From NCBI GenBank assembly GCA_943704415.1, contig CALSCO010001763.1, positions 1-34,299 on the forward strand: a stretch of 34,299 nucleotides of DNA. Direction: 5' to 3'. The stretch is from Parvularia atlantis (Eukaryota). Below are positions 3,380 to 34,299 of this stretch, piece after piece. The position numbers were made by a program, and so were the translations under genes. The notes beneath the pieces were generated by a model. It was not told where the DNA came from, searched no databases, and was given only the letters and a program-made list of their open reading frames with translations. Numbering within the stretch: the stretch's first letter is position 1; every line of letters begins with the position of its first letter.

Positions 3380-5849
3380 TCAAAAGACTTGCACGCGGTT
3401 GTTGTCCGTGTCCGCGACGACGACCTTGCCGCTCTCGAGGTGGCGCACGCACCATGGGTGGTTGAACTGGCCGTGCGCGGCGCCCTCGCCGCCCCACTCG
3501 TGCAGGCGCCGCCCGCCGGCCAGGGCCCAGACCGAGATCGTGTGCGTGCGGTACTCGGCCACGAGGAGCGAGCAGCCGTCGTTCGAGAGCGTCACGTCCA
3601 CGGGCTGATTCATGCGCGTGCGGCCCGGTGCGACGCCGCCGATCGTGCGCACGTGGTGGCCGTCGACCGTGCTGTACACCTGCAGCCGCGCGTTGCTCGA
3701 GTCGGCGACAACGATCTCCTTCATCAGCGTCGGGCAGATGCCGCGCGGCCCGTGCATATCCGTGGTCCGGAAGCCCATCTGGCCGATGCGTAGGCGCTCG
3801 CTACCGTCGCATGCGTTAAGGATGACGACCTGAGCGCGCGTACGTGCGTGAGTGCGTCTCGCGATCGGCCGCGCGGCGCACAGCACCTGACACTTGGCGC
3901 CGTCGACGACCGCGATTTCACCCTCCGGCAGCACGGCGATGTTGCGCGCGTCAGGGAAGCGAATGACGTTGTGCACGCGCCCCTCCAGGTCCATTACCTG
4001 CCGCGCGCGCGCCAGGTCAGCCACGGCCCCGTTGCAGCGGCGGACCGCACGCACCACGAGCCGTTCGTTGTCGCGGTCCGCCACCCACAGGCGCCCCTGC
4101 TTGTCAAGCGCCATGCTCCACGGCTTGTTGAGGCGCGTGCCCATGCTGCCGCGCACGTTGGGCGCGCACTCGAGGTCGCGGCCGATCGTGCGCACATGCA
4201 CTCCCTCCTGCGTCACCTCCTGTGCACCCCGCGCGCACGTGCTGCGGTGAGTCACGCATCAACGTCGCCAACAGCGCGCTGCACCTGCAGGCGGTGGTTG
4301 TTGAACTCGAGTATGAGCAGGTTGCCGTTCGGCAGCTCGACGACGCTGATCGGGCTGCAGAACTCGAGCGTGCCGTGGCCGTGCTTGCCAAAGACGGTGC
4401 TCGGGGCGCGCACTTTGCTAAAGTCGCGCGTCTTCGCCTCAGCGCCGCGGCCGGGCTGGCGGTAGATGATGCCGATGTCGCAGATGGGCATGGCAAAAAT
4501 GTCCGACGCGGGCGGCATGCTGAAGCGCAGCGTGTTGCCCACGAGCGGCTCCACGTTTGGCTCGCTCAGCGCGGCCGCGCGCACGTGCCGCGCAACGACG
4601 TCTAGAATGCTGACATACTCGAGCTGCTGCTCGTTCGGCGCCGGCGGCTCATCGTCGCCACGCTCGCGCGCGTCACGCAGGAACAAGCGCGCCATGTCGC
4701 CCTTCTGCTGGAACGACTGCCGGAGCACCTCGAGGCTGTCTGCCTGGTCCTCGAGCATCTTGTGGGCTTCATTTGATAGCTTGTTTATACTTTCCTTCAC
4801 TTCCATCTTACGCGCTTCGAGCTCGGCAATTACGACGTCGTAGGCGCTCGTCACATCCTGACACAGGTCCTGCGCCCGCCCCAGGACGCCGGCTGCAGTG
4901 CGGCGCACGGCCACCACGGCGGTTGCAAGGGCGCGTACGTTGTTGTCGACTAGGGGAATCTCCGTTGCCAGCTGTTCAACGAGCTCCTTGTGCTTCTCGC
5001 TGAGACGAATGACCTGGTGGTCCACATGTGACGAGCTGCTGGCGCAGAGCGAGCACACGAAGACGCGACAGACGGGGCAGTAGCACGACATGTAAAACGC
5101 TTGATGCAGCGGGCACTTTCCGGCGCTCGCACTGCGCACCACGGCCTGCACATGTGCACCATTTGCACACGCGTTGGCACTGACATCGTCCGGCTGCAGA
5201 AACGCATCGACGAAAGAGTCATCAGCATTGGCTTGATCAGCGCCGTCATGAATTTGGCGCCCTTTCTTGTTGTGATCGTGAGGCCCGGCATCAAACGGTG
5301 CACGAAGGCGCTTTAAAGAGGCCGCAGGGGCGAACGGATCGAGCGGCCCAAGGTCGAGGTCGGCCTCCTGCTTGCCGATCACAGACGGCGGCACGTGCGG
5401 CGGCGAGGCGTCGCGCGAGCCCATCGACTCGTGGCAGACGACGCATATCCACTTGCCCGCGTTGGCATTGGCGTCCTTCTTGCGGTCGGCGTAGCACTGC
5501 GCGCGGCGCACGTCGTATCAGCCGCCGCCGCCCAGCCCGGCGCGAGCTGGCAAAGCACACGCACGTCGGGACACAGCGCGTGCAGGCACGGCAACAGCAG
5601 CGCGCCGGTCGCGGCGCTGAACGGCTCGTTGCAGAACGCGCACACGTCGGCCGGCGGCGCCGTGCTGGCCTCGGGCGCGCCGTCGGGCGGCGGCTCGTCG
5701 CGCGGCTGGGTGACGTCAGCCGAACGGATGTCATGGACCGGGTCGCGCTTCACTCTTGCGCCGTTCGCGGCGGTGCTCGGGTCGGGCGCCCAGCCGAGCT
5801 CGACGTCGAGGGAGCGGTGGAGGTGCGTGTCCGGCACCCCAGGCCTCAT
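3380..5849 (-). CDS. TRIM-NHL type E3 ligase (RING, B-box, coiled coil, NHL beta-propeller), multi-exon
   Basis: RING CAFC...LLPCLHALCPD|C...CVVC. B-box CPLH...YCPVCRVFVCSLC...HVDH. Heptad-rich helix, then NHL repeats (FGKHGHGTLEFCSPISV, LNKPWSMALD..LWVADRDNERL, GPRGI..VVADSSNARLQVY, GQFNHPWCV..VVADTDNNRVQVF). Start codon is a best guess. Confidence 0.85.
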
Positions 5850-14479: not shown

Positions 14480-17400
14480 ATGCTCGAGACCCTCGCGCGC
14501 GCCGTCCCCGCGCCCATGCGCCGCCTCGGCGCCGCCCTGTACGGCTGTGTCGACGCGTCGCTGCCACCGTGCTCGGTGCGGACGCGCCGCTGTGCGCGCA
14601 CACTGGCAGGCTGCAAGTGCTGACCCGCCCGTGCGTACGGCGCGCAGGTCGAGCAGGTGCGCCGGCGCCTCGTCATGACGATGGTGGCCATGGGCGTCGT
14701 CTTCTTCTGCGTGCGCCTCTGCGCTTACTCCGTCAGCACCGCCCCGCGGCAGCTCAACGTGTGCTCGTTCGCTGCGGGGCCTGCGCCGTGCTCACGCGAG
14801 CGCCCTCGCCCGCCCGCCCGCCAGCTCTGGATGGACGTGGCCGCGCTGATCGTCCACTCGGGCGCGTTCTCGATGCTTGAGCGCGATGTGATTGATGCCG
14901 CAACCGTCGGGTGAGCGCGCACGTCTGCTGCCTCCTTGCGCGCGCTGCTGACACGCCTGTGCGCAGTGACGTCGCCGTGTGGATGTTCGCGGCGATGTAC
15001 GCCATGAACGTGTTTGTGATCGAGGAGCACATGTTCTCCCTCATCTCGTTCGCGTCGACCATCCTACCCGTCCTCGCAAGCTTCATCGCCACACGCAAGA
15101 CGGCCGCGCGGGTGAGCCTGGTGCACCTGCTGCCTCTGGCGCCTGACGGCACCGACGCCGCGTCGCAGATCATCGCCTTTATGACCTTCATGTACATCGT
15201 CGCATTCTGCAAGAGCGCCGACCGCCCCGCGCGCACGCTGCAGGTGCGCAGGCCGCGCGCTTTGCAGACACCAGACCGCTCATGCTGCCCGCCGCGTGTG
15301 CACTCAGCTGACCGACGTCGACGGCCTGTTCACGCTCCTCGGCACGGTCGTGTGCATCTCGCTACTGGCACAAATCTACGTCTCGCACGTGCAGCGCAAC
15401 TTTGACGGTGCGGCGCACCCCGACCGCTCCGTAGACCGCTCACTCGGCCGCCGCCGCCGCAGCGATGGTCCAGACGACCGGCACGGTCGAGCAGGCCAAC
15501 ATGACCAAAACCATGTTCATCGCCAACATCTCGCACGAGCTGCGTACGCCGCTGCACGCGATCCTGGCCGCGGCGTCATTCCTCAAGAGCGCGGACTTGT
15601 CGTCGGTGTGCGCACGGCTCGGACGCGGCTACGATCGCTCACGCGCGCGCCGCCGCAGGAGAGCCACATGTTTGTGAACACGATCCTGACCTGTAGCGAC
15701 ACGATCAAGTCGCTCGTCGGCAACATCCTCGACCTGTCGCGGATCGAGGCCGACATCCTCGAGTGGAACTGTCAGACGTTCGACCTGCTCGGCCTGGTCG
15801 AGGAGGTGCGGCGCGGGGCGGCGCGGGGCGGCTCGTACGGCCCGGCTGACACGCGCTGCGGCAGGTGGTCGACGGCATGGCCGTGTTTGCGCACAACAAG
15901 GGCATCCGGCTGCACCTGCGCTGCCCGATCGCCCCGCCCTTCCGCTGGCAGTACATCTACTCGGACAGGATCCGCCTTAAGAAGATTGTCGGAAACGTGC
16001 GTCTCGCTGTTGTGTCGGCAGCGCACCACCTCAACCGGCGCGCGCGCAACGTCAGCTGGTCGACAACGCGATCAAGTTTTGCAACGTCGGGCGCGTCGAC
16101 GTGCGTGTGACTTGCGTCGGCTACTACGGTGCGCGCCGCGTGTGCGCCGAGGGCGGCGTGGGCTGACCCTGCGTGGCCCGCAGTGAGCGCCAGCGTCAAC
16201 AGCGACGAGCTGCACCCGATGTCGTCCATGCGCAAGACGCCGGCCACGGTCGTGTCTGAGCTGTTCCCGAACTACGTGCGTGGCGGCCGGCAACCGTCGC
16301 CGAGGCTCACGCGCGCGGCGCAGCACCGCGACTTTGTGCCGCCCAACTCGCCCCTGCGCCGTCAGCCGTACGCCGCGCGCATCCGCTTCGAGGTCAGCGA
16401 CACGGGCATCGGTGCGCTCGCCTCGCGAAAGGGGACGTGGGCGCACTGATCGCTGCTTGTGCGCAGGCATCGCCCCGCACTACCTGCCCGACGTCTTCGA
16501 GCCGTTCAGCCAGCCGCTCCGGCTCAAGGAGGGCCCCGGGCTGGGCCTGTGCGTCTCGCAGCGGCTCGCGCTGGGCCTGGGCGGACGCATCCACGTCGAG
16601 AGCAAGCAGAACGAGGGCTCGCGGTTCTGGTTCGAGCTTGTTGTGCCCGTGACGTGCGTGCCACGTGTGCGCGCGAGTGATTGACGCGCGGCTCAAAACC
16701 GCACAACCGCACACATATGCAGCCCCTGCGTCGAGCAGCAGCACGCGAAGGAGGCCGTCATGCCGCTCGCCGAGGGCGACGTCAACATGTCATCGTCGTC
16801 GCGTTCGAGCTCGGGCACGATGCCGGGCGGGCGCTCAGCCGTGTGCAGCCGGCTGCTCAGCGACCTGCACGAGCGGCGCACGCTCGGGCGCTTCTACTTC
16901 TGCCGCGAGCTGACGCCGTGCGGTGCGTGCGCGCACCTGCTTGCTTGCAGGCGCTCTGACGCGCTGCGCGCAGCGGAGGACTTGCTGGAGGAGCTTGACC
17001 TGTGTGGCTTCGCAACGTGCAAGATTGCAAAGCGTGAGCTGCTCGCCCTGCTGAAAGTGCGCCCCTCTCTTGCGGCTGTGCCATGTCGCGCTCACCACAC
17101 GCCCACCCGCAGTCGCGCCACCAGCCGCACACGTCGAACGGGGCTGGGACGATCGACCTGGTGCGCAGGGCTGCGCGGGGGTGTGCTGCGGGTGGCACGC
17201 CTCACGCCGCACGGCGCGCGTGCGCGCGCAGAGTGTCGAGCGCGCGACGCAGGCGCTGCACGAGCTGGACGTGGTCGTGATCGACGAGCAGCTGATGACG
17301 CTCGAGGAGGTGCTGCCGTGGCTGCAGTCGCAGACGTTCAACGGGGTGCGCTCGCGCGCGCACGTCCGCTCGCGTCTCATGTCACGCGCGGCCAGCAGAA

Positions 17401-31817: not shown

Positions 31818-32281
31818 ATGTATCTCCCACCGTGCATGGATGGACGACTGTCGTAAACACACTCCCACCTCCAAGACGCACACCACCAACACCACAGCAC
31901 AAACGCACCGCTCGTCCCGTCCACCACCGTCGACGTGAACGACACCCCGATCCAGCTTGACCAGGCTCGTCTGCACCGCCGCGGCCTGCTCTGCCGGCGA
32001 CGGCACCGCGCGCTTGCCCGACGACGCCCCCGCCAGACCGTTGATCGCCTCCGTTAGGCTCGCCACCGTCGACACGTACTCGCCCGCGCTCTCGCCCGCG
32101 TACGCCACCAGCGCCTCGAGCACGTCCAGCAGCGCCTGCACGCTCGCCCCAGACAGCTCCGACGGCTTGCTCGACAGTACCTGCACCACCTGCGGGTGCA
32201 CAACGCATCAGCAGCGGCAAGCGGCCCAGCATTCAGCAACGCGGACCACACCCGCGCTCCGACCACGCGTTGATCGCGCAT
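31818..32281 (-). CDS. Probable additional 5' exons of TADA3, or a small separate gene
   Basis: Coding-like helix VVQVLSSKPSELSGASVQALLDVLEALVAY... follows a CAG acceptor near 32190 and lies in the same open frame as the TADA3 N-terminus (ORF 31395-32201). Candidate ATG at 32281. Confidence 0.45.
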
Positions 32282-32476
32282 CACGAGATACTCCGGGTGC
32301 GACGGTCACGCGGCCCGGCTGGCACCCTGGCGGCGTGCACAAGCAAACGTCCAGGAAGCAAACGTCCAGAGGTACAACAACGAGCGACCTGACATTCACG
32401 TCGACAGCCACGGTCCGTCAGCGTCCACGCCGCACAGTCCACACGGCACGCGGTCGACACGGCACTCTCGCGCAGC

Positions 32477-33444
32477 TCATGCCCAGCCACCCGCAAACGC
32501 CAGCACCTGACCCGTGATAAAGTCCGACTCGCGCGAGGCCAGGAAGATGACATACTGCGCGGCCTCGGCGGGCGCGGCCAGGCGGCGCAGCGGGATCGCG
32601 GCTGTGATTTTGGCGCGGCGTGCCGGGTCGACCAGCACCGCCTCCGAGAAGTACGACGGCGACTCGACGTAGTTGGCCGCGATCGCGTTGCTCGTCACGC
32701 CCAGCGGCGCCAGCTCCTTGGCCAGCGAAAGCGCCAGCGCGTTGATCGCGCCGCGCGCCGTCACGTACGGCGCGTAGTTGGGCAGCCCTGCACCCGTCGC
32801 ACGTCAACCACGTCCATCTTTCCCGCCCACGAGAGCACACACGCACCTCTCAGCGGCGCGGCCGACGACAGGAACAGCAGCTTGCAGCCGGCCGCGCCAC
32901 CCGGCTGCGCCTTAATCTGGCGCACGACCTGGCCCGCAAGCATGAACGGGTCAACGGTGAGCGTCCGCAGCGTCGCCAGCAGCAGCTGCTCGTCGCAGGC
33001 ATCGATGGGCGCGCGCGTGGCCGGGAAGACGTCGTTGCTGACGAGCACGTCGATGCGCCCGTGCGTCCGCGCCACATCCTCCACGAGCCCTATTGCGGCG
33101 TGCTCAGCGCCATCACGCGGCGGATCGCCGGCCGCGCACCGTCCAGCAGCGGCCGCGCCGAGACGTGCAGCCCGGGGAACCGTGCCCCAAAGCGATCGCG
33201 TGCCGCCGCGTCGTCCACGAACGTGGGGTCGTGCGCCGTCACGCGCGCGCCCTCGCGCAGCAGCGCATCCACAGCCGGCGTGCCGAGAAAGCCCTGCGCG
33301 CCACGCATCGCACGCGCGATCAGCGCACGCACCGATCAGTGCACACAGACGCACGAGCACGTTGGTCACAAGCACGACGCGGCCCGCCAGCCGCCCCGCC
33401 ACCGCGACTTGCGCCGCGACACTGCCGATCCGCCCCGCCGCCAT
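32477..33444 (-). CDS. hheF: Halohydrin dehalogenase (haloalcohol dehalogenase, SDR fold; HheF-like), 4 exons
   Basis: Removing introns 33294-33354, 33090-33139 and 32788-32846 gives VTNVL|GFLG (T-X4-F-X-G) and S-AAPLR|GLPNYAP-Y-VTA-R (S-X12-Y-X3-R). Also VSNDVFP, AIAANYVESPSYF, IPLRRL and ITGQVLAFAGGWA*. In-frame upstream ATGs (33486, 33471) make the start uncertain. Confidence 0.88.
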
Positions 33445-33637
33445 GCTGCACTCAACTTGTCTGATAAACATACGGGACCCGCTCATCGCTCACTCGCTCA
33501 AAGGCGGTCATGCAACAGCGAAAGGGGTATAGGTAAAGCAAGCGCGAGACACGGACGAAAGCGAAAGACACGGTCCGAACGGAACAGCGAGCGGGTACAT
33601 AGAAAGGGCGAGAAACGGACGAAAGCGAAAGACACGG

Positions 33638-34299
33638 TCAGAACGGAACTTCCTTCTCGTTGTTCGCGACGGTGGACGACGGGTCGCTCGGGCCGCCGAG
33701 CTGCCGGCACCAACAGTTAGTCAAAGCGACGACCTGGCACCCACGACCGACACACCTCCATGAGCTCGGTGAGACGCTGGTCGGCGTCGAGCGAGCGCCG
33801 CGATGCGCCCACGTTGAACGTGCCGGCGAAGATCGACGAGCGCGAGCGCATCGGCTCCGCATCATCATCGCCTGGTCGCACGCACGCCGTGTAAGTGCAC
33901 GTCCGCTCGCACGCGCAAGCAGCCACACACACCCTTGCCCTCCTTGCGGTTGCGTGCCCACATGAACGCCACAATGATCGCCAGAATCACCACCACGCCC
34001 AGAACGACGCCCACCGTCACGCCGATGATGACCTGAGCGGCATGCCGTCAGCACACCTTTGCGCAGCAGCACAGGCGAGCGACGCGCACCGGGTTGTTGG
34101 ACTGCTCCGCCGAGCCAGTTGGCGTGCCTGTCGGAGCCTCGGTCGTTGGGGCGTTGGTCGGACTGTTGGTCGGGCCGTTGGTTGGGTTGGAAGTCGGGCC
34201 GCTGGTTGGGCCGTTGGTTGGGTTGGAAGTCGGGCCAGACGAGGGGCCGCTCGACGGGCCGCTGGTAGGGCCAGACGAAGGGCCGCTGCTCGGGCCGCT
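33638..34299 (-). CDS. 3' part of a single-pass membrane protein with a Ser/Pro/Thr mucin-like stalk (runs off window)
   Basis: (SGPS/SGPT/SNPT/NGPT)n stalk, then TM VIIGVTVGVVLGVVVILAIIVAFMW, stop-transfer ARNRK and a short cytoplasmic tail ending EKEVPF*. Confidence 0.8.
   Translation of the reverse strand, partial: RPEQRPFVWPYQRPVERPLVWPDFQPNQRPNQRPDFQPNQRPDQQSDQRPNDRGSDRHANWLGGAVQQPGARRSPVLLRKGVLTACRSGHHRRDGGRRSGRGGDSGDHCGVHVGTQPQGGQGCVWLLARASGRALTRRACDQAMMMRSRCARARRSSPARSTWAHRGARSTPTSVSPSSWRCVGRGCQVVALTNCWCRQLGGPSDPSSTVANNEKEVPF
34140..34299 (-). repeat. 12-bp period coding repeat encoding x-G/N-P-S/T units
   Basis: Recurrent GGGCCGYTG/GTTGG units on the + strand, translating to SGPSSGPTSNPTNGPT on the - strand. 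Confidence 0.85.

Follow-up and report, generated by a model that had tools for sequence, protein, structure and literature searches.

We conclude that the nucleariid Parvularia atlantis possesses a spliced nuclear gene encoding a protein of the halohydrin dehalogenase (HHDH) family. The gene was found in a 34,299 nt stretch of contig CALSCO010001763.1, the whole of which we call the window. The reading that we favour, and hold with moderate confidence, is that the product is a predicted cofactor-free haloalcohol/epoxide enzyme whose gene probably came from an alphaproteobacterium, by way of an ancestor common to Parvularia and a second holomycotan lineage.

Table 1. Coordinates of the HHDH-family gene in the window and of related features on two metagenome contigs.
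Feature	Position	Strand	Remarks
Exon 1 (residues 1-30)	33355..33444	(-)	ATG at 33444; N-terminal extension and first half of the first motif; agrees with P0001
Intron 1 (61 nt, GT-AG, phase 0)	33294..33354	(-)	interrupts T-X4-F-X-G; spliced out in X2 contig
Exon 2	33140..33293	(-)	Phe32 (33290-33288) of the nucleophile-pocket motif
Intron 2 (50 nt, GT-AG, phase 1)	33090..33139	(-)	spliced out in X2 contig
Exon 3	32847..33089	(-)	catalytic Ser157 (32865-32863); 4-residue insertion ahead of the strand running to Ser157
Intron 3 (59 nt, GT-AG, phase 1)	32788..32846	(-)	interrupts S-X12-Y-X3-R; spliced out in X2 contig
Exon 4	32477..32787	(-)	Tyr170 (32767-32765), Arg174 (32755-32753), stop TGA 32479-32477
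Loop N201-F209	32674-32648	(-)	in exon 4
Possible 14-codon in-frame upstream extension	33445..33486	(-)	ATG at 33486, second ATG at 33471; EukProt model uses the extension
Putative PTS2-like nonapeptide (residues 5-13, R-I-x5-Q-V)	33406..33432	(-)	position 9 off the canonical motif
Intronless HHDH-family gene	L001:1100-2041		metagenome contig
Intronless HHDH-family gene	L002:5843-6772		metagenome contig
PRPP synthetase, Prs5 type, ~15 extra regulatory-loop residues	L002:3885-5380	(-)	head to head with the HHDH gene

The four-exon coding sequence (minus strand, 33444-32477; Table 1) comprises 798 nt and specifies 265 residues with no internal stop, and retention of any of the three introns shifts the frame. 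The initial annotation, made from the sequence alone, had proposed three GT-AG introns and a product of about 260 residues, and had asked that the junctions be checked against transcripts. One contig of run X2—RNA by software guess only, no matching run being recorded as RNA—lacks exactly the three intron stretches and so confirms all three junctions, the short side of the first being only 26 letters. The introns of both neighbouring genes are also spliced out in other X2 contigs. All 265 residues of the spliced product recur unchanged in the EukProt model P0001, which has 14 more upstream, from the ATG at 33486, 13 of which agree with the window translation; a query with exon 4 retrieved a 100% identical EukProt protein, EP00160_Parvularia_atlantis_P006697.

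The gene is also physically tied to its surroundings, given that an unspliced contig of run X1 (32223-33782) joins it to both spliced neighbours, at a depth of 246 against 244 and 254 for contigs farther left; it is important to note that X1 is possibly the source of the window, and is therefore not independent evidence. Run X3 (share 0.08) gave short pieces only and was left out. The intron sizes (61, 50 and 59 nt) match the mean of 60.67 bp given for P. atlantis in PMC9492541. The GC content of the gene (0.72) is similar to that of the window, with a GC3 of 0.90, and the 13 of the 138 window ORFs that have Pfam matches include Ada3, SLX1, B-box/NHL, RRM, RING and SH3 proteins. The eukaryotic host proposed at the outset is thus upheld.

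Some other features of the window may be recorded here. Run X1 and the window differ by single bases at 33076, 33436, 33465 and 33509; both differences inside the coding sequence from 33444 are silent, and the variant at 33465 agrees with the EukProt residue. The upstream neighbour (33510-34299, minus strand) is spliced, combines Ser/Gly/Pro/Thr-rich repeats with a hydrophobic stretch and has no Pfam match; its transcript contig extends to 33510 and so comes within 24 nt of the HHDH gene's ATG at 33486. At 15185-16681 (plus strand) a HisKA domain (below cut-off) and a HATPase_c domain (above it) are spread across two consecutive ORFs, likely a two-component sensor histidine kinase gene in a nucleariid, while 3383-5517 (minus strand) encodes a B-box zinc finger followed by NHL repeats, in TRIM-NHL-like order.

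That the protein belongs to the HHDH family is established by motifs, homology, predicted fold and tree. The motifs and the mechanism of the family are described in PMC4989007. Residues 27-34 of the spliced protein form T-X4-F-X-G, as in the N-terminal HHDH motif T-X4-F/Y-X-G, and residues 157-174 form S-X12-Y-X3-R (Ser157, Tyr170, Arg174), in alignment with 6A41 and HheA, while the TGxxxGxG and YxxxK motifs of the classical NAD(P)-dependent short-chain dehydrogenases (SDRs) are not present in the 265 residues. Both HHDH motifs and the lack of the two SDR motifs had been read from the letters initially, as had the splitting of each motif by an intron (intron 1 falls after residue 30, intron 3 within codon 163). 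The further claim that ORF-level motif scans would miss the gene needs one correction: EukProt already contains the spliced protein, filed with nothing but an ORF name, and a scan at the protein level would not miss it. Taken singly, the motifs have 3 and 1 chance matches, respectively, when the window is read in all six frames; each motif alone being weak, we base the assignment on motif positions together with homology over the whole length.

Both HHDH motifs occur in 119 of 124 near homologues and TGxxxGxG in none of these, and neither HHDH motif is found in any of 109 more distant SDR matches. The leading match in a sequence search of the PDB is 6A41 (E 3.6e-54), with entries for HheA and HheC next, and the best 14 matches are all either labelled as (de)halogenase-type or are 7B73 or 8XXB. 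The AlphaFold model (pLDDT 82.9, low over residues 1-29 of P0001) is a Rossmann fold of SDR type that lacks the cofactor motif; searching with it returns 6A41 as best match (rmsd 1.5, TM 0.83), the next seven places being taken by HheC chains and the ninth by FabG. A comparison with classical SDRs by homology and tree had been called for, and its outcome agrees: in a FastTree analysis against 8 classical SDRs the protein groups with the HHDHs with support 100.

The relatives are mostly alphaproteobacterial HHDHs of 45-55% identity, including HheA7 and PDB 6A41. HheA7 (WP_025899379, Sneathiella glossodoripedis; Table S1 of PMC4989007, where it is catalogued without experimental verification) shares both motifs with the window protein at 47% identity and falls in the same 45-row clade at 100/96; however, it is bacterial, has 243 residues without the N-terminal extension or the loop insertion, and is not the sister of the window protein. 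The HHDH of Alphaproteobacteria bacterium 46_93_T64 (OUR79898; AZL96753), also bacterial, has both motifs and 45% identity and lies in the same clade. The AZL96753 record is labelled 'halohydrin dehalogenase [synthetic construct]', and we take this enzyme to have been shown active. The best match by both sequence and fold, 6A41 ('Dehalogenation enzyme'), has 43% identity and a nearly identical triad motif, but L162, to which it is closely related, does not come out as the sister of the window protein in the tree; we found no paper on this enzyme in the literature searched. The SDR fold, the Ser-Tyr-Arg triad and the pocket motif are common to HheA/HheA2 (4Z9F, 1ZMO) and HheC (1PWX), with TM 0.80-0.81 and only 31-34% identity. 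As regards subtype A, the protein sits in the broad clade of HheA7, yet has 32-34% identity to HheA/HheA2, about the same distance as HheC. The C-terminal Trp extension of HheC is absent, since the window protein ends at GGWA. With HheF (BAH89601), the putative closest subtype of the initial annotation, it has the family motifs in common by definition.

By analogy with the family mechanism (PMC4989007), Ser157 would hold the substrate hydroxyl and Tyr170, its pKa lowered by Arg174, would take the proton, upon which the alkoxide would displace the adjacent halide. The motif-1 loop with Phe32, probably together with the 201-209 loop, would form the halide pocket that takes the place of the NAD(P) site, and in the opposite direction halide, azide, cyanide or nitrite would serve to open epoxides. 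We therefore predict halohydrin dehalogenase activity, that is, the cofactor-free interconversion of vicinal haloalcohols and epoxides. The likeliest role would be the detoxification or salvage of halogenated alcohols or epoxides from food bacteria and water, and this is the weakest step of the proposal.

Three other readings of the protein must be weighed against this one. That it is a bacterial contaminant or the product of a chimeric assembly might be suspected, given that bacteria are present in the P. atlantis culture (PMC9492541) and that the protein is bacterial in type; the initial annotation considered this unlikely, and the spliced contig refutes it, three introns of host size being removed and the gene being joined to spliced neighbours at equal depth, with the GC content of the window, such that the probability left to it is negligible. 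Very small, if a little larger, is the chance of an ordinary NAD(P)-dependent short-chain dehydrogenase. Pfam and NCBIfam yield generic SDR models only, and there is no HHDH model among the best 25 NCBIfam models listed per protein; however, all 25 lie far below their cut-offs, both cofactor-type motifs are absent, and sequence, fold and tree all place the protein with the HHDHs.

The remaining reading deserves more weight: that the protein is of the HHDH family but has as its natural job an endogenous or dietary epoxide, halohydrin activity being weak or incidental. The natural substrate and role of HHDHs are described as unsettled even in bacteria in PMC4989007, which leaves other functions possible, only two HHDH genes adjoining an epoxide hydrolase. 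The commonest neighbours in 80 bacterial loci (PurK 26, PurE 23, GGDEF 21, DUF2390 18, sulfate permease 14, COQ9 12) are housekeeping genes, and no catabolic partner was found among the nine neighbour families scanned in those loci, nor any partner gene among the 13 Pfam-positive window ORFs. Against this, every catalytic and pocket motif residue is retained, and 19 enzymes selected by these motifs were confirmed active (PMC4989007). Such a role is a matter of physiology and agrees with activity in vitro; we consider it possible, though unlikely.

Turning to ancestry, alphaproteobacterial names account for 78 of the best 80 of 131 genome loci, the class being our own assignment; the other two are 'Proteobacteria' and Anaerolineae. 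In a random sample of Pseudomonadota 12 of 401 genomes match at 1e-38, and only the centre genome G001 and G226 do so at 1e-90 or better, while a plasmid collection gave no match at E 1e-20. Two careful trees were built, the first of 44 rows (42 of 275 pool proteins after clustering at 62% identity, and two added rows), the second of 55, with 15 rows removed and 26 added, two of the latter trimmed of unrelated tails. The holomycotan clade is nested among bacterial proteins, which, with the preponderance of Alphaproteobacteria, supports the bacterial ancestry first proposed. Its sister group is unstable. Both the eukaryotic proteins and the bacterial rows nearest to them have long branches and are rich in GC-coded residues, and the bacterial sister group is lost in two of three composition controls, so that no donor family can be named. 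Geminicoccaceae (L160) were considered as donor and rejected, the support having collapsed under these controls.

The closest non-bacterial relatives, at 53-54% identity to the window protein, are P0004 and P0234/P0005, the products of intronless genes on metagenome contigs L001 and L002 that are 81% alike in DNA. The scan concerned covered 27 of 64 parts of the metagenome collection and retained 80 of 527 relatives. Among the 80, only those on L001 and L002 are close; S-X12-Y-X3-K occurs in 77 of the remaining 78, which were thus set aside as classical SDRs. To judge by the genes around P0234, which encode an MMM1-family protein, an AAA ATPase and a PRPP synthetase interrupted by GT-AG stretches resembling introns, L002 is eukaryotic DNA. 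One exon of the PRPP synthetase encodes 48 residues against 33 in the human enzyme, with about 15 extra in the loop after YARQ. According to PMC12238573, an insertion in the regulatory loop marks Prs5, which is exclusive to Holomycota; on this one marker, the L001/L002 organism is probably a holomycotan.

P0001, P0004 and P0234 form a clade at 99/96 in both careful trees, the bootstraps of which are not fully settled. The clade retains SH-aLRT values of 88, 94 and 93 in three composition controls in which biased columns were removed or recoded, and is recovered under a site-mixture model as well. Furthermore, a loop of 24 residues in 268 of 271 other pool proteins has 28-29 in the window and L001/L002 proteins, which thus have an insertion of 4-5 residues in common. 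P0322, an unplaced protein, has a loop equal in length to that of the window protein. Rare residues were also tried as evidence of common origin and proved uninformative: P0001 and P0004 have 5 in common, while P0004 and some bacteria have up to 6. It is probable, then, that the HHDH gene has been kept in at least two probable holomycotan lineages. Of the initial proposal of a domesticated transfer into a protist, the bacterial ancestry holds, on homology and tree, but the notion of an event confined to a single species does not, given the L001/L002 genes and a diplonemid member described below. After the transfer, the Parvularia line would have gained host-type introns, or else the other line would have lost them, and the protein would have acquired an N-terminal extension that may direct it to peroxisomes.

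HMMER, run in full against 1.84 billion representatives, found 29 proteins at E 1e-30 or better, and 74 of 148 new matches carry at least one motif. Ten matches, picked partly by eye, were looked up: one, P0312, is a EukProt protein, two clusters are bacterial and seven came without an organism. P0312 (EP01065 Artemidia motanka P030264, from a transcriptome, such that contamination by prey is possible) has both HHDH motifs, and comes from what we take to be a diplonemid. Three word-based searches and the full HMMER search yielded two named eukaryotes only. P0317, P0322, P0327 and P0396 are divergent HHDH-motif proteins that are eukaryote-like by eye only. With such genes present in a diplonemid as well as in a second, probably holomycotan lineage, the distribution of eukaryotic HHDHs seems to be sporadic and not confined to Parvularia.

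The N-terminal extensions bear a pattern reminiscent of the peroxisomal signal PTS2: R-I-x5-Q-V in the window protein, R-L-x5-T-L in P0004 and P0234, and R-V-x5-H-V in P0312. The canonical motif is [RK]-[LVI]-x5-[HQ]-[LAF] within the first 40 residues, Val at position 9 being a likely but unvalidated variant (PMC7710942). None of the four proteins has the canonical motif, the window sequence failing at position 9. A relaxed pattern, defined after the sequences had been seen, arises at shuffle rates of 0.004-0.019 for the extensions and matches 2 of 271 pool proteins, 5 of 254 other SDRs (one being P0312 itself), 7 of 441 Met-started window stretches and none of the four unnamed eukaryote-like proteins. 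Peroxisomal targeting of eukaryotic HHDH-family proteins through such a non-canonical N-terminus is therefore a tentative suggestion, made from sequence, to which we give a minority share of belief.

How many times eukaryotes acquired the gene may be viewed in several ways. We regard as improbable that Parvularia and the L001/L002 organism received it in independent transfers and are grouped by an artefact of long branches or composition. The two proteins are no more like each other than either is like the best bacteria, both are rich in GC-coded residues, and one gene has three introns where the other has none. In AU tests after short searches, four trees that separate P0001 and P0004 all escaped rejection (p 0.14-0.78), the searches being too short to converge; a longer search left one such tree 47 log units below the free tree, with no new AU test. 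The clade nevertheless holds under the site-mixture model, column removal and recoding, and the same-site insertion is nearly missing elsewhere in the pool. At the other extreme, the enzyme may be the same but its gene ancient, from the mitochondrial alphaproteobacterial ancestor or one very early transfer, kept patchily in Holomycota, diplonemids and other protists but gone from most eukaryotes. The overwhelmingly alphaproteobacterial relatives, the PTS2-like N-terminus in holomycotan and diplonemid proteins alike, the diplonemid P0312 inside the same large clade as the window protein (55-row tree) and the p-AU of 0.605 when all eight proteins, eukaryotic or eukaryote-like, are constrained to one clade are points in its favour. 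However, the free tree sets P0312, P0317, P0322, P0327 and P0396 apart from the holomycotan clade; P0317, P0327 and P0396, themselves a clade at 100/98, stand beside the bacterial L108 at 99/90 in the free tree of 55 rows; and with two named eukaryotes very many losses would be required, making this quite improbable too. Less improbable, but still doubtful, is that eukaryotic HHDHs are an unrecognised group, taken at least twice from Alphaproteobacteria (by Holomycota, diplonemids and perhaps more), each fitted with a peroxisomal signal of PTS2 type. We retain as the preferred reading a transfer into an ancestor common to Parvularia and the second holomycotan lineage.

Metabolic gene transfers from bacteria to protists are common, and HHDH chemistry is itself already known, which tempers the novelty of the finding. 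On the other hand, the 2016 catalogue lists 69 HHDHs, all from bacteria or metagenomes (PMC4989007), and the family is called prokaryotic in the review PMC2792337. We found no report of a eukaryotic HHDH in the literature searched, most HHDH papers sitting in subscription journals; the accessible parts of PMC12660952 and PMC9351486 contain nothing on the subject, and eukaryotic entries may be present in the HaloCycDB tables. Found spliced and embedded in the genome of a relative of the fungi, this gene extends the HHDH family to eukaryotes. With at most 55% identity to any bacterial relative found, and an insertion of its own, the protein is a fresh biocatalyst candidate. That the gene has been kept in at least two lineages that are probably holomycotan is an argument for a function under selection. 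The natural role of HHDHs can now be put to the test in a protist that grows in culture and whose protein carries a possible peroxisomal signal. If a peroxisomal group of eukaryotic HHDHs were indeed to exist, a peroxisomal epoxide or halohydrin would be suggested as the long-elusive natural substrate of the family.
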